64,000 nucleotides of DNA from Candidatus Omnitrophota bacterium (GCA_043812495.1 JBDRMG010000016.1:2137-66136), one strand, 5' to 3'; shown: positions 24,130-48,646, numbered from the stretch's first letter. Translations and numbers: made by a program. Notes: generated from the sequence alone by a model not told the origin.

Positions 24130-24852
24130 TTACATGCGGAATTTCTCACCCAGATAGAGTTCCTTGGCCTTGGGATCGTTGATCAATTGATCCGCCGTGC
24201 CGGAAATCAAAACCTTTCCGTCGGCAATCAAGTACGACCGATCGGTGATGGAAAGGGTTTCGCGCACATTATGGTCTGTTAATAAAATTCCTAAGCCTCT
24301 ATTTTTCAAATCTTTGATGATTTCCTGAGCTTCGGCCACGACAATCGGATCAATCCCCGAAAAAGGCTCATCCAAAAGAATAAAAGACGGATTGGTGACA
24401 AGCGCCCTCGTAATCTCAAGGCGCCGGCGTTCCCCTCCGGAAAGCGTATAGGCCCTGCTTTTCGCTAAATGGGCGATGTTGAGTTCTTCCAACAATGAGG
24501 CGAGCCTGCGCTTGCGCTCGCGCGGGCTGATTTCCAAAGTTTCTAAGATTGCCATGATATTCTCTTCAACCGTTAATTTACGGAAGATGGACGGTTCCTG
24601 CGCCAAGTACCCGATTCCCAGATGCGAGCGTTCGTGAATCGATTTTCGGGTGATATTTTCCTGATCAAAAATAATCTGGCCTTCATTAGGCTGGATAATG
24701 CCGACCACCATATAAAAGGTGGTTGTTTTTCCGGCGCCGTTGGGTCCCAAAAGCCCGACGATTTCCGAACGCCGAACGGAAATGCTCAGGCCATCGACAA
24801 CCCGCCGGCCGCCATATATTTTGACAAGATTATTCGTCTCCAAAAGATACAT
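24130..24852 (-). CDS. lptB: LPS export ABC transporter ATP-binding protein
   Basis: Walker A GPNGAGKTT, the signature LSGGERRRLEI and Walker B ILLDEP, 240 aa, adjacent to lptA/C. Confidence 0.92.
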   Translation of the reverse strand: MYLLETNNLVKIYGGRRVVDGLSISVRRSEIVGLLGPNGAGKTTTFYMVVGIIQPNEGQIIFDQENITRKSIHERSHLGIGYLAQEPSIFRKLTVEENIMAILETLEISPRERKRRLASLLEELNIAHLAKSRAYTLSGGERRRLEITRALVTNPSFILLDEPFSGIDPIVVAEAQEIIKDLKNRGLGILLTDHNVRETLSITDRSYLIADGKVLISGTADQLINDPKAKELYLGEKFRM

Positions 24853-25678
24853 CGGAGCCTTCCTCTGCGTAAAAAATCAATTTTGGCCGCCCGGACAGAA
24901 TCACCCTTTGATGTTCAGCTTTATACACGGCCTTTTCAGAATAGCTGGCATTATCTCCCTGGAAAATCTTCACATTTCCGGTACAGATCATTTCTGTAAT
25001 CTTATTGGATTGAGAATCAAAAAAGACTTCCATCTTGTCCGCCAAAAGCCGGCGATCTCCGTCAACAGCCACAACATTATTGTTGAAAATGGCGTTTTGT
25101 TCTTCATAATTGATTTCCAAAGGACCATCGCATGTAATAGTAATTTTTCTTTTCCCTTTGTCCTTCGATTCAACATCAACCGTAACACTAACTTCTTCGT
25201 TGAGTTGAGCTGCGTTTAAACCCGGGTTGGCCTTGGCTCCCTTGCCAACGGCGAGCATGCTCTCTTTTTTGATGACGACTTCGTCGTCCGTGCTGACTAA
25301 GTCCACATCTCGTTCCCAATTCAGCGAATCGGTCACCAGGGTCGCGCCGCTTTCCGTTGTGATAATCACATCGTTTTCAAGAAACATATTTCCGCTTGTC
25401 TTGTTCATGGTTCCGTCTTTAGCCGTTAAATGCATAACATCTTCACCATAGTTATTGGCGACAATATTTTTTATCTTAATGGTCTCTCCCAGAATATCTG
25501 CTGAATCTCCCTTGACATCCCAAGATTTCTGCCCTGTTCCATTGAAGCCGGATAAGGTAAAGCCTTCGAATTGCTGCGGTGTTTCTTCAGCGGCCGCAAG
25601 CCCTGCTGAGCAAAGAATAACGGCCAAAAGGAGGGTAATGCTTTTTAGCATGCGTAACGCTCGATCACTTTCTGCCAT
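24830..25678 (-). CDS. LptA/LptC (OstA-like) periplasmic LPS transport protein
   Basis: Signal peptide followed by OstA-like beta-jellyroll repeats, 282 aa, in an lptC/A-lptB context. Confidence 0.7.
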   Translation of the reverse strand: MAESDRALRMLKSITLLLAVILCSAGLAAAEETPQQFEGFTLSGFNGTGQKSWDVKGDSADILGETIKIKNIVANNYGEDVMHLTAKDGTMNKTSGNMFLENDVIITTESGATLVTDSLNWERDVDLVSTDDEVVIKKESMLAVGKGAKANPGLNAAQLNEEVSVTVDVESKDKGKRKITITCDGPLEINYEEQNAIFNNNVVAVDGDRRLLADKMEVFFDSQSNKITEMICTGNVKIFQGDNASYSEKAVYKAEHQRVILSGRPKLIFYAEEGSDVSFGDE

Positions 25679-30006: not shown

Positions 30007-30141
30007 TTAATCTTCGTCCCTCAAAAAACCTAATTGCGGGGATTCTGATGTATCTTCCGAAAGACCTAACAAAAGCGGCAGGTTGGCGGGAACGATTTGA
30101 AAAATAACCGGCGCAAAGCCGTCGATTTTGATGGTATGAAT
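30007..30141 (-). pseudogene. Degenerate remnant of a giant-gene 3' end (encodes ...IKIDGFAPVIFQIVPANLPLLLGLSEDTSESPQLGFLRDED*)
   Basis: About 80 percent nucleotide identity over ~113 nt to the last codons of the 2405-aa gene at 31528..31640, with higher identity at the peptide level. An in-frame TGA lies 10 codons upstream and there is no ATG. Confidence 0.7.
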
Positions 30142-30362
30142 CCCCGCGGGCAAGTCCCTGGTTCCATTTTTATTACGTGAGCTTCACTCACGAAAAACCT
30201 TTGGCAACCCACCACGGGTAAACCCGTGGTCTGTCTTTTCGCAATTATGAGCGGATCTATTCTGCGAAGCTGCAACGTGAAAACTTTGCAGCGGAGCAGA
30301 ATCAATGAACCACTCTCAAATATGCCTGGAGATACAAAAATGGTGGCGTATTATTCTTTGCA

Positions 30363-30773
30363 TTATTTCTGAATCACTATGGATTTTATCCAATTCAGAA
30401 ACCTCTCTGCGTGTTTTGATAAATTAACCGCTTCTCTTTGGGTGATTAACCTCTGATCATATTCCACAACGCTCTTCATGGAAACAAGATGCCGTAAATG
30501 GTTCATGTTTTCATCCGCAGCTTTATGTTTTACCAAGCTTGAAAAAAGCTTAAGAATATCATCGTGTTTGGGGCTGATACTTCTTATCCCATGCAAAGCA
30601 ACTAATAAGGCATCTGCGGAAGATATTCCGGCATGGATGGCATTTAAGCCCGCGGCATTCCATTTTCCCCTACCCAGGCTCTCTTGCGCACTTGAGAGAA
30701 ATTCCTCAGCCTTTTTTAGGTAGTTAATATAATCCGACTTGGGTAAATGTGCGGTTCTTATTTTTTTAACCAT
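30363..30773 (-). CDS. HEPN-domain protein (toxin-like component of a HEPN/MNT pair)
   Basis: 136 aa and all-helical, with an Rx4-6H-type motif (RSISPKH). It overlaps the upstream MNT gene by 8 nt. Confidence 0.7.
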   Translation of the reverse strand: MVKKIRTAHLPKSDYINYLKKAEEFLSSAQESLGRGKWNAAGLNAIHAGISSADALLVALHGIRSISPKHDDILKLFSSLVKHKAADENMNHLRHLVSMKSVVEYDQRLITQREAVNLSKHAERFLNWIKSIVIQK

Positions 30774-31392
30774 TGTAAGTGATTAATTCAGCTACGCTTT
30801 TGCCATAAATGACTTTACCCGTTCGGATAATCTCTTTGAGAAAACGGTCCTCTTTTTTTAATTTTCTCTGAAATTCATCTATCCTGAATGATGAGCATGC
30901 CAAGTGATTCCCAAAAAGCACAGTTATTTTCTTTTCCGCCTTGGACAGTTGCCTGGCGAGAAGTGCCTTGTCTGTTGGATAAGGGGCAATAATAGCCATA
31001 TCGATATCGCTGTCTGCGGAAGCATTTCCTTTGGCGAAGCTGCCAAAGAGAATAATGCTCAAGGGCCGTATAGATTTTATTGCCCTTAAAATAATCCTGG
31101 CAATATGTTCAAAGACGTGACTCTCTTTTTCAAAAGCCGGCCGGATAATTTCTTTAACCAAGAAATGCTCCTCGTTCAGCCAGTAAACAAGAGAATTACC
31201 CAGGGAACGCATGTTCACTATGCCGTGGCTGGTTAAATCCTTCAAAGCCGTGTGCGCTTTGACATGGGATATTCCGATATTCTTGGCAATCTCCCGCCCG
31301 TTCATCTGGGCTTGAACATTGATAAGGAAACGAAGTATTTTTACCTTTGAAGTCTGTCCAAAAATATCATCAAGCGGCCTGTTTAACAGCAC
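30766..31392 (-). CDS. Nucleotidyltransferase (MNT-type) with an N-terminal winged-HTH, GTG start
   Basis: Minimal nucleotidyltransferase motif ILFGSFAKGNASADSDIDMAII and an N-terminal HTH (REIAKNIGISHVKAHTALKDL). AAGGAGG lies 6 nt upstream of the GTG. Confidence 0.75.
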   Translation of the reverse strand: MLLNRPLDDIFGQTSKVKILRFLINVQAQMNGREIAKNIGISHVKAHTALKDLTSHGIVNMRSLGNSLVYWLNEEHFLVKEIIRPAFEKESHVFEHIARIILRAIKSIRPLSIILFGSFAKGNASADSDIDMAIIAPYPTDKALLARQLSKAEKKITVLFGNHLACSSFRIDEFQRKLKKEDRFLKEIIRTGKVIYGKSVAELITYNG

Positions 31393-31513: not shown

Positions 31514-34500
31514 TTATCGCAAAAGACCCAACTGCGGGGATTCTAATTCGTCTTCTGAAAGGTCTAATAAAAGCGGCAGATTGGTGGGAACGATTTGAAA
31601 AATCACCGGGCTAAAGCCGCCGATTTGGATGGATTGGATAGATTGAGGATCGATTGGTATGCTAAAATCTACTCCCGCGCCTTGAGTTTGGAGTTCTAAT
31701 ATATTTGGATTGAGGTCAATACCGCCGACCTTCTCTGCTGCGATATGGTCTTGCCCTTCAACAATAACTCTATCTAATTGTTCTGCCTGTACGAAATCTT
31801 CCTGCGCTTCGTCAACTGATCCAGAATTCCCTCGGTCAAATAAAGCCTGTCCAGTTGCAAAGAAACGCATAATATTAAGCAACTCATTCGGCATTTCAAT
31901 ATGATTCATTTCAAGAATATGAAAGAACCACAACAATTTTTGTCCAACACTGTTTTTTGATTGCAACACTTGAGTGACCAGTTCGTTCCGGATATCTCTA
32001 TTCAATGTGCCACCGAGCTCTTGAATTATATTTTCCAAAACATCCTTTTGGCTATCGCGGACGGCCACCATTAATTTTCCCAGCAACCGCCGATTATTTT
32101 TGTTAAGTCCAAAAGATGCTCCTGCATCAATCAAAACAATACGAACTCGACCGTTCTCGCCCTTCTGTATCAAAATATTTCCCAAGTGAGGGTCTCCGTG
32201 ATAAAAGCCCTCATAGAAAATTTCCCGTAATAGTTCATTGGCCACAGCCAATTCGACATCCTTCTGATCAACCCCTGACTCCTGCACGCGTGCTTCATTC
32301 GACAATTTAATACCATCAATGTATTCCATAACAATTAGTGAATTGTTAAAGACCTCAATTATCTGCGGAACATAAAATTCATAGTCCCCTCTTACCTCTC
32401 CCAATCGAGTGTCACCAAATAATTTCTTTAAAGAAAACTCCTTAATTCTCTTCAATACGGTTCGCTGAACCCGGGAACCTAATTCGGCCGTATTCTTTGC
32501 CTCCTGCTCAAAATCCAGTTCTTGCCGAAACCCTTCTTCTAGCTGTGAAATGAAATTATCCGGTATAACAATTCCTTCCTCCACAAAAGCCGAACGTAAG
32601 TCATCATCGAAGACATCCTTCAAAAACTTCATGTCGGCCTCAATAGTCTTATCGACTTCGGATCGTTTAACTTTGATAGCCACTATTCTGCCATCGCGCA
32701 TCTTGGCTCGATAAACGCCAGCAATTTTTGCACTGCCCAAAGGTTCTTCAATGCTCTCAAACTGTCCCGTCAAATCAAATTTTTCCAACATATCAAAGAC
32801 CACTCCTTTATCCATCCTGCGAGCACTGTCTTGAACCAGCGACAATTCATCCCGCATAACCGGAGTGACCCACAAAGAACGAGCCAAAACTTGTGCCAGT
32901 TGGCGACCGACTAATCCAAGCGACTCCAGAAACATACGCACTGCACGAGCCTCTTGCCTCTCCGGAGTGATGTTTGGCTGACCAGCTTGCATTTCACCAC
33001 GCTGTAAGGACAAAGTCCAGGCTAACGAAAGAAAAATTTCCTCACGGCGAGATTGGTCAGCTTTCTCAAAAACCTTATCAAAGACTTTTTTTAGAACGCT
33101 CTTATTCGGACCATCTTTGATTAGGAAATCAAACATGCCGTCCAGCAAATTTGACATGGCTGTGGGATCATTAAAAATGCCTTTTTCGCCATATAGAAAC
33201 GGCTCCAGAGCCTCCCGTTGTGACGACTGACCAGCCAAAGGATAATATTTGCTCTGCCTTCGGCCAAAATCTTCTCGCATGCTATCTGCATTAACGTGGA
33301 AATTATATTCGAAATCAATAAGGAAAAACGGCTTCTCGTCTGTGATGCCCATAAGCCAAAGAAGAAGATGCGCTTTCTCAGTTGGGCTGCGATCCTTCAT
33401 CCATGCGCGAAATACATCAGCATGCATTGCCGTTCGCGCCGTTTCTTTAAGATCCAAATCTTTGGTCTTTTTGAACGGATCAAGATAAAGCGCTCTGACC
33501 TGCTCGTATTGCTCACGCGTCTTTGTCAAGAATTGTGCTGTCTCTGAAAGAATATCATCCCTGATTAACGAAGCTTCTGGGAAGAATCTCTGAATTTTCT
33601 GAAGAACATCATCCAACGTTCCAAATTCTTCAGGATGTTCCGTGCGATATTGATCAAAGACGCCTAACGCCAGATTATCCCGCAATTCGCGGTTATGAAC
33701 CATCGCCAGCAGTTTTTCAATCTCATCGACGGTCTTGTCTCGACCCTCAGCCTGAATTGCCTCTTTAATCCATTTGTCCCTTACCAATGATGATTGCGGA
33801 TAATACTTTTCAATAGATTCTCTTTTAGAAGCCAATGATAACTCTGAAAAACCGATGATGTTTCTCATTTCCTCTTCGGCCAAACGGCTAACAAACACAT
33901 ATAATTGAGCAACGGGTCCTCCCGGATTAGAATAAATCATATCATCGTAATCACCACTCTCCTGATTATGCTCTTGGCGAATAGCAGTCTCATCTAATTG
34001 AGGAGCATTTTTGGAGTATCGATCTCTCCAATAGGCCGCCACAGTTGCTTCATTAGACTTTTCCATAATTCCATCATGAACAAAATATGGCGCGATTGCC
34101 GCTATGGCCGATAAAACACCCGCTCTTTCATCTGTCGATAGCCCGGCAAGATGCATCTGCATCCTTTTAATATCAAAAATTGCGTCGTTATGGCCAGTAT
34201 ATCCGGCCTGATTAATAAGCACCCGATTGACGAAAAGCATATAAAGAACAAAATTTTTGAATACTGATGGCGGCATCTCTCGAACTACCACATCAACAGC
34301 CTCCTCGTAATCTGCAGGAAGCAAAGCGATAAAATCAAATAACCGCATAAAATCATCAAAGGCAATTTCCTCTCTCATGAAGCGAACCGCGTTCCTAGGT
34401 CGTTGCTTAGTGGCTTGTTTGGTATAGTCAGCCTCTTCAGAAACCCCCTTGCCTGAAATGTCTCCGGCAAATACACGCCAAACACTACTCCCAAGCCTGA

Positions 34501-37500
34501 CATCATCCTCTTTAAGTCTCACGTCATAACCAAGCTCCACGAACAGTGCCTGCAAATAAACCGGCGCCGTATACTTTCCAAAGGCCTCTTCTTGCTGTTC
34601 CGGTGTTGAATCTTTTTCAGATAATAATTGACCAATCGAATGGCGATTACGCTCCAGTAACTCCTTGATCAAGCCAAATTCATCGTTGTTAACATTTTCG
34701 ATTCTCCGTTCAGGATTAATCTCATTCCAACGATCAAAAATCTTGAGCCGATCCTTGTTAGATAAAGCATTATATCGTTCTGATAAATCTTCTTCATCAT
34801 AAACTGGACGCTCAGGCTCGGCGTTTTTGATAAAGGAAATAATTTGTGGATCAGAAAACATGCTTCCCTTTTTTTCTCTAACACGCAATGCACCGAAAAT
34901 AAAATTTCTCAAATTCTTTCCTTCCGGGATTCCCCCCCCCAGGGCAATAACATAAAAAATTGGTCTTAATTCGCGTCGTGTCCTCTCAATTAAAGGCCTA
35001 AACTCCTTGGGTATATGCTCAAAAAGAACTCTTTCAAAAGCATCACCAGTAAACATTTGACTATCTCCACGTGCCCTTAGCCAAAGATCGCGGAAAATAC
35101 CCAAATCATTATTGATGTGTTCTTCTCTAAATTTCGTGAAAATCTTTTGATGCACAAGAACAAGCTCTTCAGAAGAAACTTTGTTGGCTTTTGCATGCGC
35201 GGCTTCAACAAAAACTTTCAATACATTCTGCATATTCTTAACAATGTTTTTATTCGCCAATAAACTGTCCAAGTATTCTATCCTGCTTCCCAGAAAGACG
35301 ATGCCTTGGCCTTCCTTAAATAGAGTTTGTATATCCAACTTTATAAACTCGGCTCTTAATGAATTCCACCCATCATCCCGACGTAAAAGCCAGTCCATAA
35401 GTTCCTTCTTTGCGTCAGGAGAAGTATTGCGAGCAAGTTTGTATAATTCCTCGGCAAGTCCGTCCGCTTTTAATGCATAATTGACCTTGGTCCCTAAAAT
35501 TTCATAAACACGAATCAGGAGCCTGATGTCTTCTGATTCTAACTGACTTCGATAAACAGTGGATGAAGTCAAGACTGATGCCATTTGACTTAACGGTTCA
35601 GCAAATAAATAACCTTTGAAGTACCCTTGTGAATCCTGCATATCTATCAAGTCAGTAAGAAAATGGCGGGCCTGTTCTAATGTCAGTTTGCCTTGCTGGG
35701 CATCCTTAACCATTCTTATATACAATCCATACAGGAAGCCGCTGGCATAGTGCTTAAATCGATCACTCGCACGCCTTGGCCCTTTCATAGGAAGGACATA
35801 AGAATCGAGCCTTGAAAGAACTCTTTTAGCTTGTTCATGTCGATCATTCATCTTTTGTTTCTCCACATCAATTGACATAGAGAAAATACCCGGAACGCCT
35901 AGTTCATAAATTTGAACGATCGTTTCAGGGGATAATAACTGACCAAGGCCAAGAAAAGAATTCATGTCTGAGCTTAAATCTTCTCTCTTTAGTCCAAGCA
36001 TCACATAGATTTCATCCCTCATATATTTAAATAAAACTTGTTTGGCTTCATCCTCACCGGAAAATTCTTTTATCCGTTGTTCAAATACCGTTTGAGCTAG
36101 AAGATAAAATTGCTTTTCAGTATCAGGTAAAACCTCATAACCAATCAACATCGCAAAATGCAATTCTTCAATTGTCTTTGCCTCATTCAATAAGGATATG
36201 AGATTCGATGTGTTTGTAACATTGATAACTCTTTCTTGAAATTCTCTAAATCGCGTTCTTTGTTGAGAAAGGGGAACAGATTTTAATGCCGTAGGCGGGA
36301 CGTCTTGATTCTGCCAGTGATATGTCAGGATCTGGTGCTGCAACTTTCTTAAACGTTCTTCTATTTGGGGGTGAGTGCCCCAAAAAGCGTCACGTTCGCC
36401 GCGTGCCGTCAGCCAATGCTCTATGCCAGCAAGAATATGTGGCGCCGACCTAACTGAAAAACCAGCTCTGTCCATCAACCACAAAGCTAATAAGTCACTC
36501 TGATATTCCTTGCCTCGATCTTCCGCATGACGATCTATCAATCTTTTCTTTTCATCAAACCGACCTTCATCAATTTCGCGACGGTTCTGCATAATATGCA
36601 AAATTTCATGAGACAAAACCCAAGCTAACGCATCTTGCGTTACATCAAGATTATTAGTGCTCGCATATTCCGTGAGCATACGAATAAGCCCCAAATTAAC
36701 TACGATAGTATTATAATAATTCACGACATAGGCATTAGGATCAGTCGTATCCGCGAGGAAAAATTGAAATTCTTGTGGGTTCAGTCCCTGAGCAATTAAT
36801 AATCGGTCTATAACACTACGTACCTCATCATATAACGTCTGAAACTGCTCGAAATCTTCCTTCCCAGGAGCAATGAAGCGATCAACGACATCCTTTTGTT
36901 TCAGAAACTTTTCTTTACGATCAACGTCTCGGTTATATTCGCTCTGAGATTTTAAAGGTGTCCCCGGAATAGTTTTTCCAACCTTTTTCCTGTCCGATAC
37001 AGGAACTCTTCGGATGCTAGGACTGATTATATCCCTTCTCGCAACCTCATATTCTTGCCGGGCGGTTTCTTGATCAATCTGCTGATCGCCGGCCCGTAAT
37101 CTCTGGCGTGCGTTATTGTGGGCGATAATCCAATGCTTCCCTGCTTTTCTTTCCTGAACTTCCTCTCGCTCAAGGTCAAGCTGCTGATCAATTTCACTTT
37201 CAAAGACAATGATTTTCCAAATCTCGTCTGTGCCTTTAAAGTTAATCGCCTGAACGCCACCCTTCGGATCCATGACCCATCTTTGAATGGCTTTTCCTAA
37301 ATCCGTTTCCTTAACCGCATCTGAAATGACAAAAACGCGGACATCGTTTTCTTCATCCATTGTCTCAGCAATTAATCCTTGTTGTTCGAGATGGCCTAAA
37401 ATAAACTCTAGAATTTGATCTTCAGTGGCATCATTTGCAACTTCGGGAACATTCTCACTCCTAGCCAGAATATTTATTAACCTACGAAAGCGGTCTAGAT

Positions 37501-38731
37501 TTTTGACAGGATCTAAAACAGTCGAAACTGTTCTTAGCGATCCGGCTGTTGTTTCATTTGCTTTGGCTAAAGTTTCAACTCCACTCTTTGATTCAACTGA
37601 AAGAGCTTCATCAATTGCCTTTCCTCGGAACTCCATCCCGCCAGAAAAATATTTCCTGGGTATAATCTGTCGAGTTGTTGGATCATAATCTTCTTTGATG
37701 TAGTTATAAACGCCTACTTTAAACGCTTCGACATACTGTTGATAAATTTTTTCTCTAACCTTCTTGTCCTCAATGTCAACCCCACTGACTTTATTTTCAC
37801 CAACATAAACTTTTCCCAAAAGACTTTCTTTAAGATTACGCTTAAACCATGTGGCCAGAATCATGGAATGATATATCTGACGCAATAATGAAAAGTTTTC
37901 TCCGTTATTAACCTCTTTCTCAATCTCCGGGATAATGACTTCTCTCACAATTTCAGAAGAAATATTGCTGAGTTGTTCAACATCCTCTTCATCTAACTTA
38001 TCCGTGCCAATTGTTTCTTTGTTTAGATTTTCCTTGAGAGCAAGATAATCCCCTTCCAGCATGACTTTTAAATGGCTTTCAATAATAAAAGCCGTATCTC
38101 CGGTCTCGTACACAAGAGCTTTTTCCGGAACAACCCAGACTTTATTGAAAGTATTTATTGGTATTTCTGCCGTCCCATAACGCTCGCGCGCCTTCTCATA
38201 GACTCGATTCCAAAACTGTTCCCCTAATTCGTCTTCAGGATAAATCAACGAAGCCGTTAATTGCTTGAGGATATAGTCCTGGCCCAACAAATCCCTGCCC
38301 ATTTCAGTAATACCTAATTGATCAGGGATAATTCTATCCTGTTCATAAGGGGATAGATTGACCCATAATTCGTCCTCTGGCACCGTTAGGGAAGCCAGGA
38401 AATATTTGATAAGTTTGGAAGATTCTGTCTGTAAAGTTTCATCCTCGAATTGAGCGCTGCCTGTATCTATGATGAAATCAAATCGAAGAGGATTATTCAC
38501 AAAGATCTTGATACCTTTTATAACGGCAGGGGTAAAATTCGGGGTTGGCATAACCATAGCTCCGACCGCAGGAAGATTCAACAGACCCTGGGCATGAGCA
38601 GGCGGTGGCGGGGTGATGAGGCTTGAGAGAAACGCCAGAATAACAAAAGACACAGCGCATCTGTAAGGGGCCCTGGAGGTAGCGTTTGATTTTCGGCTTT
38701 GAGAAAGCATCCCTTTAATATGAATATTCAT
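31514..38731 (-). CDS. Giant 2405-aa secreted multidomain protein with an M48-like zinc-metalloprotease segment and a C-terminal ABC1/UbiB-type atypical kinase domain
   Basis: A single uninterrupted ORF. The N-terminal signal peptide is hydrophobic (AVSFVILAFLSSLI), then PPPPAHA/QG. Around aa 690-720, DPNAYVVNYYNTIVVNLGLIRML...ALAWVLSHEILHIMQ follows the M48 NAF...GLL...HEXXH pattern. The C-terminal ~300 aa match ABC1 motifs: LGSAKIAGVYRAKMRDGRIVAIKVKRSEV, FYHGDPHLGNILI and LIDAGASFGL. Confidence 0.85.
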   Translation of the reverse strand: MNIHIKGMLSQSRKSNATSRAPYRCAVSFVILAFLSSLITPPPPAHAQGLLNLPAVGAMVMPTPNFTPAVIKGIKIFVNNPLRFDFIIDTGSAQFEDETLQTESSKLIKYFLASLTVPEDELWVNLSPYEQDRIIPDQLGITEMGRDLLGQDYILKQLTASLIYPEDELGEQFWNRVYEKARERYGTAEIPINTFNKVWVVPEKALVYETGDTAFIIESHLKVMLEGDYLALKENLNKETIGTDKLDEEDVEQLSNISSEIVREVIIPEIEKEVNNGENFSLLRQIYHSMILATWFKRNLKESLLGKVYVGENKVSGVDIEDKKVREKIYQQYVEAFKVGVYNYIKEDYDPTTRQIIPRKYFSGGMEFRGKAIDEALSVESKSGVETLAKANETTAGSLRTVSTVLDPVKNLDRFRRLINILARSENVPEVANDATEDQILEFILGHLEQQGLIAETMDEENDVRVFVISDAVKETDLGKAIQRWVMDPKGGVQAINFKGTDEIWKIIVFESEIDQQLDLEREEVQERKAGKHWIIAHNNARQRLRAGDQQIDQETARQEYEVARRDIISPSIRRVPVSDRKKVGKTIPGTPLKSQSEYNRDVDRKEKFLKQKDVVDRFIAPGKEDFEQFQTLYDEVRSVIDRLLIAQGLNPQEFQFFLADTTDPNAYVVNYYNTIVVNLGLIRMLTEYASTNNLDVTQDALAWVLSHEILHIMQNRREIDEGRFDEKKRLIDRHAEDRGKEYQSDLLALWLMDRAGFSVRSAPHILAGIEHWLTARGERDAFWGTHPQIEERLRKLQHQILTYHWQNQDVPPTALKSVPLSQQRTRFREFQERVINVTNTSNLISLLNEAKTIEELHFAMLIGYEVLPDTEKQFYLLAQTVFEQRIKEFSGEDEAKQVLFKYMRDEIYVMLGLKREDLSSDMNSFLGLGQLLSPETIVQIYELGVPGIFSMSIDVEKQKMNDRHEQAKRVLSRLDSYVLPMKGPRRASDRFKHYASGFLYGLYIRMVKDAQQGKLTLEQARHFLTDLIDMQDSQGYFKGYLFAEPLSQMASVLTSSTVYRSQLESEDIRLLIRVYEILGTKVNYALKADGLAEELYKLARNTSPDAKKELMDWLLRRDDGWNSLRAEFIKLDIQTLFKEGQGIVFLGSRIEYLDSLLANKNIVKNMQNVLKVFVEAAHAKANKVSSEELVLVHQKIFTKFREEHINNDLGIFRDLWLRARGDSQMFTGDAFERVLFEHIPKEFRPLIERTRRELRPIFYVIALGGGIPEGKNLRNFIFGALRVREKKGSMFSDPQIISFIKNAEPERPVYDEEDLSERYNALSNKDRLKIFDRWNEINPERRIENVNNDEFGLIKELLERNRHSIGQLLSEKDSTPEQQEEAFGKYTAPVYLQALFVELGYDVRLKEDDVRLGSSVWRVFAGDISGKGVSEEADYTKQATKQRPRNAVRFMREEIAFDDFMRLFDFIALLPADYEEAVDVVVREMPPSVFKNFVLYMLFVNRVLINQAGYTGHNDAIFDIKRMQMHLAGLSTDERAGVLSAIAAIAPYFVHDGIMEKSNEATVAAYWRDRYSKNAPQLDETAIRQEHNQESGDYDDMIYSNPGGPVAQLYVFVSRLAEEEMRNIIGFSELSLASKRESIEKYYPQSSLVRDKWIKEAIQAEGRDKTVDEIEKLLAMVHNRELRDNLALGVFDQYRTEHPEEFGTLDDVLQKIQRFFPEASLIRDDILSETAQFLTKTREQYEQVRALYLDPFKKTKDLDLKETARTAMHADVFRAWMKDRSPTEKAHLLLWLMGITDEKPFFLIDFEYNFHVNADSMREDFGRRQSKYYPLAGQSSQREALEPFLYGEKGIFNDPTAMSNLLDGMFDFLIKDGPNKSVLKKVFDKVFEKADQSRREEIFLSLAWTLSLQRGEMQAGQPNITPERQEARAVRMFLESLGLVGRQLAQVLARSLWVTPVMRDELSLVQDSARRMDKGVVFDMLEKFDLTGQFESIEEPLGSAKIAGVYRAKMRDGRIVAIKVKRSEVDKTIEADMKFLKDVFDDDLRSAFVEEGIVIPDNFISQLEEGFRQELDFEQEAKNTAELGSRVQRTVLKRIKEFSLKKLFGDTRLGEVRGDYEFYVPQIIEVFNNSLIVMEYIDGIKLSNEARVQESGVDQKDVELAVANELLREIFYEGFYHGDPHLGNILIQKGENGRVRIVLIDAGASFGLNKNNRRLLGKLMVAVRDSQKDVLENIIQELGGTLNRDIRNELVTQVLQSKNSVGQKLLWFFHILEMNHIEMPNELLNIMRFFATGQALFDRGNSGSVDEAQEDFVQAEQLDRVIVEGQDHIAAEKVGGIDLNPNILELQTQGAGVDFSIPIDPQSIQSIQIGGFSPVIFQIVPTNLPLLLDLSEDELESPQLGLLR
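31528..31640. repeat. Direct repeat copy 2: the 3' end of the giant gene, duplicated in diverged form at 30029..30141
   Basis: The two segments were aligned by eye at ~80 percent identity. The pair brackets the HEPN/MNT cassette. Confidence 0.7.
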
Positions 38732-39105: not shown

Positions 39106-40269
39106 TTATATAACCTTATCTGCCCATAGGCGGTTTAAGAAATTTTCCCAGGGCCATATGTCCATCTTGTTGTGAAGTCTTTTTTCTTTTTCGTTGCAAA
39201 CCACGATACTTTTTGAGGGTGAAAAAATTTCCCTAAAGGCATTTAACCCACGCAAATCTTTTCTTCCGATGCGGCTAGAGCCTTTGACTTCAACGGCCGC
39301 TTCTCCTTTTCCAAGCACAAAATCGACTTCCATGCCTGTCTTGGTTCTCCAGAAATGAATGTCAAAGTTCTTATTGCTGTAGGAGCGATAGGCAACGATT
39401 TCCATCAAGATAAAGTGTTCAAAGGCCCTTCCAAAGTCGCTGCCCCGGGTCTGGGCCACATGCCTTTTTGTCAAATACCCCGCGACACCCACATCAAACA
39501 GATAGTATTTCGGGGTCTTTGTGATCACCTGCCGCGATTGTCTTTTGCGAAAGGGCTCAAGGCGGATAGCCAGCAATGTATCGATAAGGATTTGATAATA
39601 TTCTTTGACTGTCTTGGAATCAACGGCGCATTCGCGGGCAATGTTGGAATAATTTGTCAGTTCTCCGTGGGAGTAAGCAAAAGCATCAAAAAATCTTGAA
39701 AACGCCGGTATATTGCGCGTCAAACCCTCGGCAAAAATTTCTTCACGCAAATAATCCTGAACATAGGCCTTTAGCGATCTTTGCGCCTCTTCTTTATTCT
39801 GCAAATAATGAATCGGAATCATCCCCTGATTTAATGCACGCAAAAGGTCGACTTTCATTAATTCCCGGCTCACAAAGGGAAACAATTCGTACCGCCAGGC
39901 CCTGCCGCCCAAGAGGTTGGCATGGCCTCTTTTTAACTTTCGCGCACTTGAACCGCAGAGGATGAACCTCAATCCTTTATTTTCTATCAACCAATGTATT
40001 TCATCCAGAACCTGCGGAATCTTCTGGACTTCATCAATAATGATGGGTTTCTTGAAAAAGGAATCCTCTTGGGCAAGAATACGCTCACGCAATAGCGCCG
40101 GATTCTTGGATATTTCCATAAATAAATCCGTTTTCAGAAAATCATAAACAAGGCTGTCTGGAAACCTCTCTTTTAAGAAAGTGGTTTTGCCGGTTTTCCG
40201 GGCGCCCCAAAGAAACGCCGATTGCCCCCGGGAAAGCTTCAAATCCAATATTCTTGGTATCCTTCTCAT
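39106..40269 (-). CDS. AAA-superfamily ATPase of the DUF4143/COG1373 type
   Basis: Walker A GARKTGKTT, Walker B IIIDEV and a C-terminal DUF4143-like region (WRTKTGMEVDFVL), 387 aa. Confidence 0.7.
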   Translation of the reverse strand: MRRIPRILDLKLSRGQSAFLWGARKTGKTTFLKERFPDSLVYDFLKTDLFMEISKNPALLRERILAQEDSFFKKPIIIDEVQKIPQVLDEIHWLIENKGLRFILCGSSARKLKRGHANLLGGRAWRYELFPFVSRELMKVDLLRALNQGMIPIHYLQNKEEAQRSLKAYVQDYLREEIFAEGLTRNIPAFSRFFDAFAYSHGELTNYSNIARECAVDSKTVKEYYQILIDTLLAIRLEPFRKRQSRQVITKTPKYYLFDVGVAGYLTKRHVAQTRGSDFGRAFEHFILMEIVAYRSYSNKNFDIHFWRTKTGMEVDFVLGKGEAAVEVKGSSRIGRKDLRGLNAFREIFSPSKSIVVCNEKEKRLHNKMDIWPWENFLNRLWADKVI

Positions 40270-43520: not shown

Positions 43521-44574
43521 CCATCTTTTCCGCGGAGAATTCTTTCTGAATAAAAAGCCGCGCTGATTCTCCTATTTTCTTGGCCCTGATGGGGTCTTTC
43601 AATAGAGCGATGACGGCCCGGCCAAGCTCCTTGGGATCTTTGCTTGAAACCAAAACACCTGTTTCATTGTCCTGGATGAGGCTCGGAATACCGCCCACTC
43701 TTGAGGCCACAACGGGTAAACCCACCGCTTGCGCCTCCATCACCGAAAGGCCTAAACCTTCTTGGATTGACGGCATAACAAAAATATCAAAAATTGGTAA
43801 GATCCAGGCCGTTTTATTGACGATAGGATAAAAAGAAATGTTCTGCGCCAAGCCCAGCTCTTTGGTCATTTGCTTTAATAAGTCTTCTCTTTTCCCTTCA
43901 CCAATAATCATCAAGCGTGCCTGAGGAATTTCTTGCACAATATGCTTCATGGCCGAAATCAATATGTCATGGCCCTTGACATCGGATAACCTGGCGATGA
44001 TTCCAATCACGGGGCCTTGATCCAGATGAAATTCTTTCCGCCTATCTTCTTTCGTCTTTTCATCAATGAGGCGAAACTCATCTAGATCAATTCCGTTGGG
44101 AATAAGGTCAATTTTGTCTTTCGGAACGTGAAAATCCTTTTCAAGATGACGTCGCACGGCCTCACTGATGGCAATAGTCCGGTTGCCCCAGCAGGGAAAT
44201 ATTTTTCTGGATAAACGGGGTTTAAAAAAACCGTGGCATGTGCAGACACAGGGTTTTTGAGACATTTTCTGAAGAAAAAAGCCTATAACTTGCGTCACGC
44301 GCGTATGCGCATGAATAATGTCAATCTTTTCGTTTCGTATAAGCTCTCTGAGCTTTTTTAAAGACAGATAAAGTCTTGGATTTAATTCGGATTTTGTGCG
44401 AAGCGCGAATGTCTGATGCCTAGCGCCCATCGCTATCAAATCATTGACTCGGTCACCGCCGCTCGAGACAACAATCACGCGATGCCCTCTCGATAAAAGA
44501 CTTTTTGTGAGCGTGAGAATATAACTCGCAATTCCGCCTGTATGGCAATGAGTCGACAGAATAAGAATGTTCAT
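43471..44574 (-). CDS. Glycosyltransferase family 4
   Basis: GT-B fold with a C-terminal EGLGLSVMEAQAVGLPVVAS motif, 367 aa. Confidence 0.85.
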   Translation of the reverse strand: MNILILSTHCHTGGIASYILTLTKSLLSRGHRVIVVSSGGDRVNDLIAMGARHQTFALRTKSELNPRLYLSLKKLRELIRNEKIDIIHAHTRVTQVIGFFLQKMSQKPCVCTCHGFFKPRLSRKIFPCWGNRTIAISEAVRRHLEKDFHVPKDKIDLIPNGIDLDEFRLIDEKTKEDRRKEFHLDQGPVIGIIARLSDVKGHDILISAMKHIVQEIPQARLMIIGEGKREDLLKQMTKELGLAQNISFYPIVNKTAWILPIFDIFVMPSIQEGLGLSVMEAQAVGLPVVASRVGGIPSLIQDNETGVLVSSKDPKELGRAVIALLKDPIRAKKIGESARLFIQKEFSAEKMVEKTIACYQKAMGEHE

Positions 44575-46673
44575 CTTTTCATCTTTACTAATTTCAAAAC
44601 TTCATCAGCCACTTCTTCGGGCTTAATTTCTTCCATGCACAAACGGCTGGGCATCCGGCACATCGGACTGTAGCAAGGGCTGCATTTGATTTCCTTCTTA
44701 AAAATAATAGGATTCTCGCAGGGCGGCGCATGCCTTAAGGGGTTTGTCGGCCCAAATAGGGCAATAAAAGGAGTGTGCATGGCTGCGGCGATATGCATGG
44801 GCGCCGAATCCGGCGTAATGAATACCTTGCATTTTCTAATGAGGACCGCCAACTGTAAAATATCTGTTTTCCCGACCAGGATCGCAGGCTTGGACTTTGT
44901 TCTGTTGAGCAATTCCCTTGCTCTTTCTTTGTCCTGTTCAACGCCGGTAACAACAATGCGCAAATTCTTTTGAGAAAGAATATCGCATAACCGGGCCACA
45001 TGATCCAGAGGCCAGTTTTTGGATATCCATTTATCGGAAGCCGCCAGATGAATACCGATTATATTTTTTTCATGCCCCATCCATTCGGAATCCAAAAGAT
45101 TCCTAACGAACTCTTCGTCTTCGATCGATGGCCATAGTTCCAAAGAAAGGTTGCCCTCATATTCAATGCCCAACATCTTCAGCACCTGAAATTGATGCTC
45201 GACGGGCGGCAAAAACGGATGTTCGTTCTTGATCCGCCGCGAAAGAAGAAAACTTCCCTTGCCGTTATCGTATCCGTAACTGTTTCTCGCAAAACTCAAG
45301 AATGCCAGCATATGACTCCTGCGATTATTCTGCAAATCTATCACCTTGTCGAACCTGAATCTGCGCAATTGACGGGAGAAGCGAAACAGCCTCCAGGCGC
45401 CCCGGTCATTTTCTTGGGGATCGATCACGATGAATCCGTTGATATAAGGACAGCGCTTGAGGACAGGGCTGGCTTCTTTTCCGACCAGGCAATAGATCAG
45501 GGCCTGCGGATATCTTCGACGCAATGCTCTCAAGGAAGGAATGACCAAAACAACGTCGCCGATCGAGCTGATTTTAATCACCAAAATATTCAAAGAATCG
45601 AGCAATTCTTTATACACCTCCAGAGTCTTACTGGCCATATGCTCAAGCGTATATTTTAATTCAATTTTCTTGCGGGCCTCCGTGACTAAGCTTTGAGCCA
45701 ACCGCCTGTCTTTCAAGACTCTCATCACGGCTTGGGCCATGGCATCCGTGTCTTTCGGTAACACCAAAAGGCCTGTTTGTTCATCATCAATAATTTCAAT
45801 CACGCCACCCACTTTCGTTGCCACCACAGGAACGCCGGCGGCCTGGGCCTCAACCACAACACGGCCAAAGGATTCCGGTTCTATGCTTGAGAGGACCAGA
45901 ACATCAATACGCGAAAGAAGCGCGGGGACGTCTTTTCGATTTCCCAAAAATTCAACGTAATCATGAAGCCCCAATCGTTTGATGAGAATCTGGAGCTCCT
46001 GCTTATAGGATTGTTTGCTCGCGGGCGCATCTCCGATCATCCAAATCTTGACATAGGGCATCGAGCGAACGACCTTGGCCATCGCTTTCAGGAAATACGC
46101 ATGTCCTTTAAGCGGCGTCATGCGGCCGATAATGGCGACCACTCTGTCTGCCTTCCCTGTTTTCTCTTCATGCGGTTTACTAAACCGCTTGAGGTCAACA
46201 CTGCGGGGAATCAGGCGGATGCTTTCTTGGCGGACACCAAAATCATCGATCATGTGCCGGCCGATCACTTCGCTCGGGACAATCACAAGCTTGGATGAGC
46301 CCATGACGCGGCTAAAGAGATGCTTTCCGTAATACCCATGGCACGTCGTGATAAAGGCCGTATCGGTCTTATGACAGGCAAAAAAAGCGATCCATGCCGG
46401 AACGCGGCTGCGCGCATGAACAATATCTACCTTTTCATCCATAATGATCTTTTCTAATTTCTTGATGGAGGAGATGATAGAAAATAAATTTTTCCGATGT
46501 GCAGGAAGTTTGTAATGTTTGACGCCGGCCGCTTCGATATCTGCTACAAGGTCTCCGCCGCTGGAAACAACAACCGCTTCATGACCGTGTTGAATTAAGT
46601 ATTTGGCAAAATCCACCGTGCCGGTTTCGACGCCGCCGACTTTGAGCTCGGGAAGTATTTGCAGAACTTTCAT
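44571..46673 (-). CDS. Bifunctional GT4-GT9 glycosyltransferase fusion
   Basis: The N-terminal ~350 aa are GT4 (ESFGRVVVEAQAAGVPVVAT). The C-terminal ~350 aa are a GT9 heptosyltransferase (ILVIKISSIGDVVLVIPSL ... TPDSAPMHIAAAMHTP). Total 700 aa. Confidence 0.8.
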   Translation of the reverse strand: MKVLQILPELKVGGVETGTVDFAKYLIQHGHEAVVVSSGGDLVADIEAAGVKHYKLPAHRKNLFSIISSIKKLEKIIMDEKVDIVHARSRVPAWIAFFACHKTDTAFITTCHGYYGKHLFSRVMGSSKLVIVPSEVIGRHMIDDFGVRQESIRLIPRSVDLKRFSKPHEEKTGKADRVVAIIGRMTPLKGHAYFLKAMAKVVRSMPYVKIWMIGDAPASKQSYKQELQILIKRLGLHDYVEFLGNRKDVPALLSRIDVLVLSSIEPESFGRVVVEAQAAGVPVVATKVGGVIEIIDDEQTGLLVLPKDTDAMAQAVMRVLKDRRLAQSLVTEARKKIELKYTLEHMASKTLEVYKELLDSLNILVIKISSIGDVVLVIPSLRALRRRYPQALIYCLVGKEASPVLKRCPYINGFIVIDPQENDRGAWRLFRFSRQLRRFRFDKVIDLQNNRRSHMLAFLSFARNSYGYDNGKGSFLLSRRIKNEHPFLPPVEHQFQVLKMLGIEYEGNLSLELWPSIEDEEFVRNLLDSEWMGHEKNIIGIHLAASDKWISKNWPLDHVARLCDILSQKNLRIVVTGVEQDKERARELLNRTKSKPAILVGKTDILQLAVLIRKCKVFITPDSAPMHIAAAMHTPFIALFGPTNPLRHAPPCENPIIFKKEIKCSPCYSPMCRMPSRLCMEEIKPEEVADEVLKLVKMKR

Positions 46674-48646
46674 ATGATTTTTTTAATGGCTTCCAGGATG
46701 GTCGGATTGTCGTCTAAGGGTTTTGTTTTGATGGCCTGATTGGCTAACTGATCAATATGTTCCGCCAAATGATTTTCGTCGCTTGCGACAACATGCCCCT
46801 GGGCATGCAATTGCTCAACAAAAATTCTATGTTTATTGCGACGCGTTTCGGCTTCCTTCTGTTTAGGTAAATACACAATGGTACCTTTCTTTGAGCAGGC
46901 GGCTTCGCTGATCATAGAAATACTGTCCGCTGTGACTACAATCAAATCAGACAACCCCAGAATCCCGCCGATAACTTCCGGAAAATTCTGTTTATTGGCA
47001 ATTACCAAAAGTACGCACAGAGGAAAACCCTTAAGTTCATTCTCAAGGATATCCCCAATCGCCGCGGGAGTCCTGCGAGAGGTTGTCACCAAAATTTCTG
47101 CGTTAAGTTTTTTAGCAACTTCCTTGATTTGTGAAATAACAAGACGGGCCTGCGTTTCATCAAAAGGATTGTTTTTTCCCGCCCCACCCAATAGAATGCC
47201 GATTTTACATCGATCGTTTTTTTTGATATGGGGAAATCGCTTCATCAGGGCAAGCGACTGAGATTCCAAATACGCCTGATCGATAAGATTGGGCGCGCCT
47301 TCTGTAATAATAATTTTTCCTTTTGTTTTACGATGGGCCTGGCGGTCATGCTGCGGCAGAATCACAAGGTTGAATTTGTCAAACCCCAGAAGACCCGGGG
47401 TAAGAATCGCAATGCTTTTAGCGCGACAATCGCTGGATAAAAGAAAATTCGCGCCGGCTCCGGCCGACCCGCAGGACACAACATAATCGGCTTTGATACT
47501 GGAAATCTTACGGTAGGACTCTTTGGTCAAAAACCATTTAAAATACCTCATCCGCCCCTGGCAAAAACGCGCATTAGCGAGGAAGCTCAAGAGCGCAAGG
47601 ACTTTGGTCGAAAAGGCATTTTTAAAATGGATATCGACAATCTGTGTTTCGGAATGGATGCCCCGCTCAGCTAAGGCGGCATCAATCATCTTGGCCACGG
47701 CCTGGGATTGGCGAAGATGCCCGACTTTTCCGTCATGGATAATCACCGTAGCCGATTCTTTGGAATATTTCCAAATCTTGTAAAACCAGACATATTGATC
47801 GGGATATTTTTCGATATAAGACTCCATAAGTTTCACAACTTTTTCAAGATTCCCAGCAACATCTTGCTCGGTATTCCCGGTTTTGATGAGCTCGAAAGCT
47901 GGATGAATGACGAGCCGATGACGATAATCAGGGCCTTTTTCGCGAATGATAATCGCAAAACAAACAGGGGTCCCAAATTTTAAAGCCAAACGAATCGCCC
48001 CCACGCTCATGGAGGCCTCCCGGCCGAAGAATTTTACCAAAACGCCGTCTTTTCCGCCTTGATCAGCCACCATGCCGATGATTTCATTTTTGCGCAAAGA
48101 TTCAATGATTTCCCGCGTTCCTGAGCCGCGTGAAATGATAACGGACCCGGCGCATTCCCGGTAAGAATTTAAAATTTCGTCCAGTTTGGTATGTCGTTTC
48201 TGGGGCTTGACCACAACCCTGTAGGGATGTTGGGCCATATGGGACATGAGGCTCGAAATCTCCCAGCTGCCAAAATGCGGCGGCAGGAGAATCAGGCCTT
48301 TGCCTTCTTTTAAAGCAGCATCGATATGTTCTTTTCCTTCTAATCGAACGTACTTTTCAGGCCCTTCTTTGAGAATCAAAGGCAAGCGCAGCAATTCGAC
48401 CACATTCATGCCAAAATTCTGGAACAACCGCTTAACGATACATTTAATTTCACTCGGCTTTTTGGTTTTGGCAAAGGCGATTTTCAGGTTGGCGTAAGCC
48501 AGGGATTTGTGTTTGGCATCGAAATAATAACCGAGGATACCCATGGCGCGGCCAAAACTAAGCGCCATGCTGAGCGGAAGACGACGGATAATAATGCCGA
48601 AAAATCTAACGATGTAATAGATCAGAGATTCGGTTAAAGAATTCAT
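46670..48646 (-). CDS. Lipid A acyltransferase (LpxL/HtrB family) fused to an ELM1/GtrOC1-family putative glycosyltransferase domain
   Basis: The N-terminal ~300 aa are an LpxL-like acyltransferase (PPHFGSWE). The C-terminal ~350 aa carry ELM1 motifs HDGKVGHLRQSQAVA, ILLGG and VTTSRRTP. Total 658 aa. Confidence 0.75.
   Translation of the reverse strand: MNSLTESLIYYIVRFFGIIIRRLPLSMALSFGRAMGILGYYFDAKHKSLAYANLKIAFAKTKKPSEIKCIVKRLFQNFGMNVVELLRLPLILKEGPEKYVRLEGKEHIDAALKEGKGLILLPPHFGSWEISSLMSHMAQHPYRVVVKPQKRHTKLDEILNSYRECAGSVIISRGSGTREIIESLRKNEIIGMVADQGGKDGVLVKFFGREASMSVGAIRLALKFGTPVCFAIIIREKGPDYRHRLVIHPAFELIKTGNTEQDVAGNLEKVVKLMESYIEKYPDQYVWFYKIWKYSKESATVIIHDGKVGHLRQSQAVAKMIDAALAERGIHSETQIVDIHFKNAFSTKVLALLSFLANARFCQGRMRYFKWFLTKESYRKISSIKADYVVSCGSAGAGANFLLSSDCRAKSIAILTPGLLGFDKFNLVILPQHDRQAHRKTKGKIIITEGAPNLIDQAYLESQSLALMKRFPHIKKNDRCKIGILLGGAGKNNPFDETQARLVISQIKEVAKKLNAEILVTTSRRTPAAIGDILENELKGFPLCVLLVIANKQNFPEVIGGILGLSDLIVVTADSISMISEAACSKKGTIVYLPKQKEAETRRNKHRIFVEQLHAQGHVVASDENHLAEHIDQLANQAIKTKPLDDNPTILEAIKKII

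Follow-up and report, generated by a model that had tools for sequence, protein, structure and literature searches.

The stretch of DNA analysed here (the window: 64,000 nt, one strand, Candidatus Omnitrophota bacterium, GCA_043812495.1 JBDRMG010000016.1:2137-66136) contains a giant gene for a protein of 2405 amino acids (aa), in which a soluble M48-type metalloprotease domain and a UbiB/ABC1-type atypical kinase domain are enclosed between two conserved end modules (Table 1). These enzymes are one type of cargo within a very large, previously undescribed, Omnitrophota-specific family of exported proteins, termed here bookend proteins, whose members share an N-terminal module (N-module) and a C-terminal module (C-module). 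Four features, namely the signal peptide, the adjoining N-module, the terminal C-module and the near absence of cysteine, are all present in the giant protein and are common to 115 of the 120 best hits. The preliminary description of the gene, made from the sequence alone, had seen in it a singular fusion for which no precedent was known. The first part of this view fails, as the M48-UbiB combination is one cargo type, carried by about 4% of the members, within a family of thousands sharing the N- and C-modules; the second fails for the sequence databases, in which the identical protein is already deposited, from a 132-kb contig, as 'AarF/UbiB family protein [Candidatus Omnitrophota bacterium]', and the M48+ABC1 architecture recurs in about 30 of the 120 best hits. 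In the literature, no paper describing an M48-UbiB fusion or the bookend family was found.

The homologue search with the giant protein as query returned 2,718 significant proteins, most of which match the query over just 14-17% of its length, with an identity of about 60%, and have different Pfam domains. The pairwise alignments reduce the shared parts to aa 48-365, which adjoin the signal peptide, and to the C-terminal ~60 aa; the N-module lies at the relatives' own residues ~30-360 in all 120 best hits, and the C-module constitutes the last ~60-70 residues in 115 of them. Both end modules are under much stronger constraint than the cargo. The N-module, which ends in PRKYFSGG and is rich in invariant aromatic residues (W123, W174, W199, W295), has 27 invariant positions among 80 sequences, and the consensus of 111 copies of the C-module is GGIDlNp..L.Lq..g.g.....p.d........i.Gf.PvIi.i.P.tnlPlllG. 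A second shared stretch (N2) is restricted to a subset of the family, its hidden Markov model matching 32 of 340 N-module proteins, and one member with a HATPase_c cargo (P0023) aligns with aa 48-573 of the query at 56% identity. The conserved C-terminal module of about 60 aa (aa 2336-2394) had been overlooked in the preliminary description, and the region of ~560 aa upstream of the protease, which it had left anonymous, is occupied by the N-module and the N2 stretch (aa ~390-575).

Neither the N-module nor the C-module has a match in Pfam, NCBIfam or PDB sequences. AlphaFold models of the first 420 aa of the query (predicted local distance difference test, pLDDT, 72.7; predicted template modelling score, pTM, 0.72) and of P0313, a relative without cargo (pLDDT 74.5, pTM 0.75), both predict an alpha/beta domain with long helices and three beta-hairpins; in the P0313 model, part of the C-module (residues 371-380) reaches pLDDT 89, and the modelling hints that the C-module may dock on the N-module. 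An invariant Gly-Gly pair is found at both module borders (PRKYFSGG, aa 358-365; GGIDLN, aa 2336-2341), resembling double-glycine processing sites, and C39 peptidase domains have been described as common in Omnitrophota giants; that these borders are processing sites is speculation.

The size of the family is evident from an exhaustive HMMER search with the N-module, which retrieved 8,026 cluster representatives (clusters at 50% identity) at E<=1e-3, of which 6,268 remain at the stricter E<=1e-30; the module is always N-terminal, and the longest protein has 5,312 aa. When one genome per GTDB species was scanned, 78 N-module loci were obtained, all of them from metagenome-assembled genomes labelled Omnitrophota/Omnitrophica, with some assemblies labelled 'Planctomycetales'; the isolate OFTM38 accounts for six of the 78 loci, one of which has three copies. 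At least two N-modules are present in 20 of the 78 loci, and where the C-module of the upstream gene was also detected the tandems run head to tail, the next N-module beginning a few hundred nt later. The length of complete members (those with both modules) starts at 438 aa, and its median within the loci is ~1,580 aa. The smallest, P0313 (438 aa), consists of signal peptide, N-module and C-module only and is present on five contigs, indicating a real gene; it came from a homologue search with the N-module alone, which otherwise yielded mostly short contig-end fragments and no cargo census. In locus L079 (2704..4020), the P0313 gene adjoins a BrnT toxin gene and a 1110-aa open reading frame (ORF).

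Between the end modules, the cargo is diverse, one paralogue differing completely from another. Pfam identifies in other members metabolic enzymes (phosphoglycerate kinase, glucose-6-phosphate isomerase, phosphoglucomutase, UDP-glucose pyrophosphorylase, and malate synthase with isocitrate lyase and aldolase), signalling domains (HATPase_c, receiver, GGDEF, and Ser/Thr kinase with PP2C), SNF2 and DEAD helicases, a RelA/SpoT-like domain (PF13328), NUDIX, GNAT and methyltransferase domains, radical S-adenosylmethionine (SAM) enzymes with a B12-binding domain, and HEAT, WD40 and TPR repeats. In P0119 (2074 aa), the only four cysteines of the mature part, C581, C584, C585 and C588, form the CxxxCxxC site of a radical-SAM domain (CVFCCAIC); cysteine is thus kept only where catalysis demands it, and the cargo would therefore be under selection to work, the sequences indicating a catalytic rather than decorative role. 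The M48-middle-ABC1 cassette is present in four of 96 N-module ORFs, in loci found via the N-module, and its three parts always occur together; a role of the protease as a family-wide self-processing domain, comparable to the MARTX protease, was rejected on these grounds.

Some comparisons bear the signs of cargo exchange between the end modules. The query and P0014, which has a different cargo without M48 or ABC1, are 76.7% identical in the N-module and 80% in the C-module, while the values against the full-length orthologue P0002 of the query itself are 69.8% and 56.9%, respectively. An orphan remnant of a C-module lies downstream of the giant gene, beyond a HEPN/nucleotidyltransferase pair, and about 120 nt of it are, by an estimate from the alignment, near 85% identical to the 120 nt with which that gene ends; this looks like the replacement of a 3' end, or like the insertion of a cassette, by recombination within the conserved module. 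In locus L085, a 353-aa ORF (4855..5916) with signal peptide and N-module ends just past YFSGG and is followed after 85 nt by P0122 (6001..11358), which has the M48-UbiB cargo and the C-module; the split may reflect pseudogenisation, an error in the sequencing or a form that is naturally in two parts. P0122 (1785 aa) had been considered as a cargo cassette independent of the end modules, an interpretation rejected once the N-module was located in the separate ORF 85 nt upstream.

The signal peptides were judged by rule-based inspection, that is, by a basic n-region, a hydrophobic h-region and small residues at positions -3 and -1. In the giant protein, the n-region contains K6, R13, K14, R20 and R24, and the sole hydrophobic stretch of the entire chain, aa ~21-45, is followed by PPPPAHA|QG, mean hydropathy exceeding 1.4 in 19-residue windows only within aa 21-45. 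The signal peptide with an AHA/QG cut claimed in the preliminary description is thus borne out, and its elements (basic n-region, hydrophobic core, A-x-A|Q) are conserved family-wide, a hydrophobic core being present in 115 of 119 members and a net-positive n-region in 112; 97 of the 119 have, behind the core, a small-x-small motif and then Gln, the residue at -1 being Ala in 93 of those. The start codon of the giant gene is ambiguous by seven codons (M1 or M8), neither with a clear ribosome-binding site.

The cysteine content of the family points in the same direction as the signal peptides. The only cysteine of the giant protein, C25, is within the signal peptide, and the mature part contains none in 2,358 aa, the chance of which would be 5.5e-13 at the window median of 1.19% Cys. 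The mature parts of 120 full-length relatives have a median of 0.04% Cys, with none in 52 and at most two in 94 of them. Among the controls from the same loci, the median is 1.19% in proteins without signal peptide or membrane segment, 0.94% in membrane proteins and 0.30% in other signal-peptide proteins, 26 of 60 of which have none. The bookend family is placed outside the cytoplasm because of this near absence of cysteine in comparison with its cytoplasmic-type neighbours, and its composition is that of exported proteins, in extreme form, despite the cytoplasm-type enzyme domains, which argues for export. Cysteine depletion was also considered as proof of a special route of unfolded translocation, an idea that was toned down since the other signal-peptide proteins are Cys-poor as well.

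With regard to the cargo of the giant protein, the M48-type HExxH site and the C-terminal ABC1/UbiB kinase with its lysine, HGDPHxGN and IDAG motifs had been recognized in the preliminary description, and the HMMER searches that it proposed place both domains above the Pfam gathering cut-offs (PF01435, E=3.7e-12, 46.9 bits versus 20.3; PF03109, E=2.2e-41, 142.1 bits versus 22.9, aa 1988-2229). In the protease domain, the HEILH motif (708-712) is accompanied by the third-ligand Glu, E742, in EYQSD, and by HPQIEER at 787-793; in an alignment of 14 M48+ABC1 sequences, no variation is seen at H708, E709, H712, E742, D746, P788 or R793, and H787 is conserved to at least 90%. The subfamily profile matches the PDB entry 3c37, an M48 family peptidase, with E=9e-11, and BepA with E=3e-5. 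No transmembrane segment was detected in the domain, which does not have the integral-membrane topology of HtpX/Ste24 and groups with the soluble M48 members BepA (YfgC, periplasmic in E. coli) and 3c37, with which it shares, besides the lack of transmembrane segments, the HExxH motif, the downstream Glu and the HP…R motif. BepA is exported by means of a signal peptide. The giant protein differs from BepA in that no TPR domain was detected in it by Pfam, the similarity is distant (as the E value indicates) and the domain is integrated in a giant multi-module protein.

The kinase-like domain contains VAIK at 2017-2020, HGDPHLGN at 2178-2185 and IDAG at 2201-2204; in the same 14-sequence alignment, K2020, E2071 and N2185 do not vary, and conservation is at least 90% for D2180 and D2202. 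The subfamily profile matches COQ8A (4ped) with E=3.3e-20 from residue 2 of the crystallised chain, which shows that the UbiB-specific N-extension is included. The KxGQ motif of this extension reads R-Q-L-A-Q in the clade of the query (Lys to Gln, Gly to Ala), with Q1947 invariant and the extension still alignable, and IKLGQ or KKLAQ in more distant relatives. The scores for TIGR01982 (141.9 bits versus an equivalog cut-off of 487.55) and PRK04750 (98.6 versus 667) assign the domain, by sequence criteria, to the UbiB family and not to the UbiB orthologues. UbiB proper carries C-terminal membrane helices, and no such helices were found in the giant protein by hydropathy outside aa 21-45. Thus, the domain has the common fold signature of UbiB/COQ8/ABC1K, including the N-extension and the catalytic Lys, Glu, Asp, Asn and Asp, and differs from these proteins in lacking a membrane anchor and in being part of an exported 2405-aa protein instead of a cytoplasmic, mitochondrial or plastid protein of 400-550 aa.

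The anonymous spacer between the two enzymes, previously given as ~1700 residues, is in fact ~1,100 aa long (aa ~800-1890). This middle region has no Pfam match and no PDB profile match, can be aligned among the M48+ABC1 orthologues even where identity falls to 39% (P0007, P0123) and always co-occurs with the M48 and ABC1 domains. Together with the two enzyme domains, it makes up a conserved cassette of ~1,700 aa. An M48 protease (PGM48, sll1280) and ABC1K are both core components of the prenyl-lipid droplets of plastids and cyanobacteria, the plastoglobules and cyanoglobules (PMC12223511, PMC8956952); there, ABC1K and a soluble M48 protease are co-resident, whereas in the giant protein the two families are fused in one chain. 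By this analogy, there is a hint that the cassette may act on membrane proteins and prenyl or quinone lipids.

The interpretation favoured here, with moderate confidence, is that the giant protein is a carrier exported by the Sec pathway, with end modules that serve as handling signals and an M48-UbiB cargo that is active on the far side of the producer's inner membrane, possibly within a host cell. Once the carrier has been exported and cut before Q48, its end modules would be recognised by some common machine or structure responsible for its sorting, anchoring or delivery past that membrane, and the cargo would work where ATP is available. For an exported protein, such a site would most plausibly be at or inside another cell, in agreement with the host-dependent lifestyle proposed for Omnitrophota (PMC10066038); there, the cassette would probably remodel both the proteins of the target membrane and its prenyl or quinone lipids. 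An effector acting in a host or prey cell had been put forward as an inference in the preliminary description, and the idea gains weight because ATP-dependent and radical-SAM cargo makes little sense outside the cytoplasm, yet the proteins look exported. A more far-reaching version can be offered tentatively: the end modules could be the address labels of an unrecognised sorting or delivery system specific to Omnitrophota, with dozens of Cys-free carriers per genome, loaded with functional enzymes of metabolism, signalling and nucleic acids (here the M48 protease and the UbiB kinase), being placed on or in host or prey cells to reprogramme their membranes and metabolism.

Several observations weigh against the interpretation as a delivered carrier. 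The folds of both end modules match nothing known, and their role is deduced from position and conservation; the signal peptide was called by rules; and cysteine depletion, being common to other exported proteins, supports export and no particular route or delivery into another cell. When 792 ORFs from the 78 loci were clustered, no conserved secretion or delivery partner was found beside the family genes. As for the cargo itself, the degenerate KxGQ motif (RQLAQ) leaves the ATPase or kinase competence of the domain not assured, to judge from its sequence, and the comparison with lipid droplets is an analogy based on co-localisation in distant organisms.

Alternatively, the bookend proteins could form a surface coat or matrix, in which the N-module would anchor to lipopolysaccharide (LPS) or the outer membrane, the C-module would assemble and an enzyme-studded layer would result without any injection. 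This is unlikely, even though the export signals, the high conservation of the N-module with its invariant aromatic residues and the many paralogues per genome are compatible with a coat, the cargo-less P0313 could be a pure structural unit and an extracellular 'coat' of giant protein has been proposed for Velamenicoccus (PMC10066038): cargo dependent on ATP, SAM or iron-sulfur clusters would be inactive on the surface, yet the catalytic residues are kept, and the predicted structures contain no repeat or lattice-type fold.

The position of the gene is of relevance for a second alternative, that of a factor for envelope maintenance in the producer itself, with a BepA-like protease and a UbiB-like lipid-handling ATPase acting in the periplasm or outer membrane in step with the LPS genes. 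The giant gene lies inside a cluster for lipid A, core, 3-deoxy-D-manno-octulosonic acid (Kdo) and LPS transport (LpxK, KdtA, heptosyltransferases, KdsA/B/D, LptC/A), from which it follows that the organism has an outer membrane; moreover, the M48 profile matches the periplasmic BepA and the protein looks exported. Against this, orthologues with 66-75% identity are found in unrelated contexts, next to RND and P-type ATPase genes, V-type ATPase and ParE toxin genes or a TIR-domain gene, so the LPS neighbourhood is incidental, and a functional link to the surrounding LPS genes was rejected on the basis of these three orthologues. The giant gene is, in addition, flanked by accessory genes (DUF4143 ATPase, HEPN/nucleotidyltransferase), a UbiB ATPase would have no ATP supply in the periplasm, and the same end modules carry phosphoglycerate kinase, helicases and radical-SAM enzymes without any envelope role, all of which makes a maintenance function quite improbable.

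It is more doubtful still that the hydrophobic segment is an uncleaved N-terminal anchor, with the ATP-dependent cargo residing in the cytoplasm of the producer and the family representing membrane-tethered enzyme scaffolds. Nearly all identifiable cargo consists, indeed, of cytoplasmic enzymes or signalling domains that need ATP, UTP, SAM or DNA, and a 2026 preprint interprets many of the larger Omnitrophota giants as membrane-anchored with the bulk in the cytoplasm; however, the basic residues lie on the N-terminal side of the hydrophobic segment, an arrangement for which the positive-inside rule predicts an external location of the bulk, the small-x-Ala|Gln motif follows the core in the 97 of 119 members mentioned above, and the cysteine content of the family fits the exported and not the cytoplasmic proteins of the same loci.

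That the gene is an assembly chimera or a fused pseudogene, with no single real protein behind it, is effectively refuted on sequence grounds, because the uninterrupted frame reported in the preliminary description is confirmed and the orthologous giant genes it had recommended seeking exist in full length in independent assemblies (P0002, P0003 and P0004, of 2394-2398 aa and 72-75% identity; their collinearity with the query extends over 99% of its length, and they stem from different samples and pipelines in NCBI, Logan, ENA and JGI), in line with the identical protein on record and with no support for a chimera found, the split relative P0122 illustrating that such genes can break.

In its organisation, the carrier favoured above resembles several known secreted systems. 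The MARTX toxins of Vibrio are very large secreted proteins with conserved N- and C-terminal regions around an interchangeable effector array that is reshuffled by recombination; their secretion signal is of type I and C-terminal, a Sec signal peptide being absent, and they contain glycine-rich repeats and, internally, a cysteine-protease domain. The giant protein is similarly very large, with conserved ends and exchangeable central cargo, and differs from MARTX by its Sec signal peptide, its two non-repetitive end modules and its types of cargo; no MARTX or RTX element, the cysteine-protease domain included, was matched by Pfam in it, and GGIDLN occurs once. The polymorphic toxins of the CdiA/Rhs type have a signal peptide, a conserved handling domain of ~300 aa and a long variable body, and occur in multiple copies with orphan terminal fragments. 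Here, too, the N-module stands directly after the signal peptide, the genes are multi-copy, an orphan C-module is present and toxin-antitoxin or defence genes are nearby, whereas the variable part is in the middle with both ends conserved, and the cargo comprises metabolic and signalling enzymes instead of nucleases or pore-formers. Neither the two-partner secretion domain TPS (PF05860, absent at E<=1) nor Rhs/YD or PAAR domains were matched by Pfam in the giant protein, and no adjacent TpsB-type transporter or immunity gene was found beside family genes in the 78 loci; the protein is not a member of the two-partner secretion class, its N-module being modelled as alpha/beta. The last 100 residues have no Pfam or NCBIfam match at E<=1 that would correspond to a type IX sorting domain, and no autotransporter barrel (PF03797) was matched by Pfam, the C-module of only ~60 aa being too short for a barrel. 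Therefore, the architecture works like that of MARTX and polymorphic toxins, but belongs neither to these nor to the type V and IX classes tested.

The Omnitrophota proteins of at least 10,000 aa described previously are mostly sequence-unique (West-Roberts et al. 2023, bioRxiv 10.1101/2023.11.21.568195; bioRxiv 10.64898/2026.06.07.730766). The bookend proteins share with them the phylum, the frequent signal peptides and the embedded domains (HATPase_c, methyltransferase, GNAT, HAD, phosphoglucomutase, receiver, radical SAM, NUDIX, GGDEF, HEAT), and differ in size, which ranges from 438 to about 5,300 aa; the studies of these giants make no mention of a shared N- or C-module, of cysteine depletion or of an M48-UbiB cassette.

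The Omnitrophota, widespread, uncultured and very small, are believed to live at the expense of other cells. Should the end modules act in sorting or delivery, they would define a new export route and provide a catalogue of candidate effectors for the phylum. The giant gene is of less interest as a singular fusion than as a doorway to a family of more than 8,000 sequence clusters. The M48-UbiB fusion, in turn, provides an independent "Rosetta-stone" link between families connected so far only by their co-residence in plastid and cyanobacterial lipid droplets, and bears on the long-unsettled role of the UbiB/ABC1 proteins.

Table 1. Location of the giant gene, its parts and the accessory elements around it, in coordinates of the window.
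Feature	Position (nt)	Strand	Residues	Remarks
Whole gene	31514..38731	(-)		single open frame, 7.2 kb, 2405 aa plus stop codon
Predicted Sec-type signal peptide	38591..38731	(-)	1-47	basic n-region; h-region AVSFVILAFLSSLI; c-region PPPPAHA; predicted cut before Q48
N-module	37637..38590	(-)	48-365	LNLPxPGxMV ... WVNLSPYE ... TEMGRDLLxQDYxLKQ ... PRKYFSGG; family-defining
Second shared stretch, N2	37007..37564	(-)	~390-575	only in a subset of family members
Soluble M48 zinc-metalloprotease domain	36332..36904	(-)	~610-800	HEILH 708-712, E742, D746, HP....R 787-793
Middle region of cargo cassette	33065..36331	(-)	~801-1889	no recognisable family
UbiB/ABC1 (COQ8-like) atypical kinase/ATPase domain	31832..33064	(-)	~1890-2300	K2020, E2071, D2180, N2185, D2202
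C-module	31550..31726	(-)	2336-2394	GGIDLNPNILELQTQGAGVDFSIPIDPQSIQSIQIGGFSPVIFQIVPTNLPLLLDL; extreme C-terminus in 115/120 best hits
HEPN + nucleotidyltransferase pair	30363..30773 and 30766..31392	(-)		Pfam HEPN E=1.3e-11; Polbeta/NTP_transf_2 E=1e-10
Orphan C-module remnant	30007..30153	(-)		48 codons, …IKIDGFAPVIFQIVPANLPLLLGLSEDTSESPQLGFLRDED; tblastn 72.7% identity; downstream of giant gene and toxin-antitoxin pair
AAA_14/DUF4143 ATPase	39106..40269	(-)		directly upstream of giant gene; Pfam; PADLOC PDC-S01 E=6e-54

With respect to the genomic context, all 40 window ORFs of at least 250 aa are on the minus strand, the GC skew is negative throughout and the annotated ORFs are mostly housekeeping genes, the 64 kb representing one co-oriented chromosomal block. 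The giant gene has a G+C content of 0.40-0.43, versus about 0.45-0.46, and constitutes, together with the accessory and defence-type genes that bracket it, a lower-G+C island within the LPS-biosynthesis cluster. The HEPN/nucleotidyltransferase pair, whose nucleotidyltransferase corresponds to PDC-M05A in PADLOC, sits between the stop codon of the giant gene and the orphan C-module remnant. Genes similar to the upstream AAA_14/DUF4143 ATPase are found beside family members in only four loci, indicating an accessory gene and not a conserved partner. PADLOC identified no known defence component in the giant protein, with a marginal kinase-like match only, and a scan for promoters and terminators gave nothing above the shuffled expectation. 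Elsewhere, family genes also adjoin ParE/YoeB, BrnT or TIR genes, and the recurrent neighbours across the 78 loci are a stand-alone receiver (~142 aa, 11 loci), a histidine kinase (~495 aa, 10 loci) and housekeeping genes; receiver and HATPase_c domains also occur as cargo in many family members.

A T2SSE type II/IV secretion ATPase (11415..12677, minus strand) and an A24 prepilin peptidase (55590..56384, minus strand) are encoded 19-24 kb from the giant gene, and the vicinity of larger Omnitrophota giants is reported to contain genes for secretion and pili; a link of these two genes to the giant gene is not established. Among the envelope genes of the window, three further ORFs of the minus strand are unusual fusions: a 700-aa protein combining GT4 and GT9 (heptosyltransferase) domains (44571..46673), a 658-aa protein combining a lipid A acyltransferase with Mito_fiss_Elm1 (46670..48646) and a 282-aa protein combining LptC with LptA/LptD_N (24830..25678).

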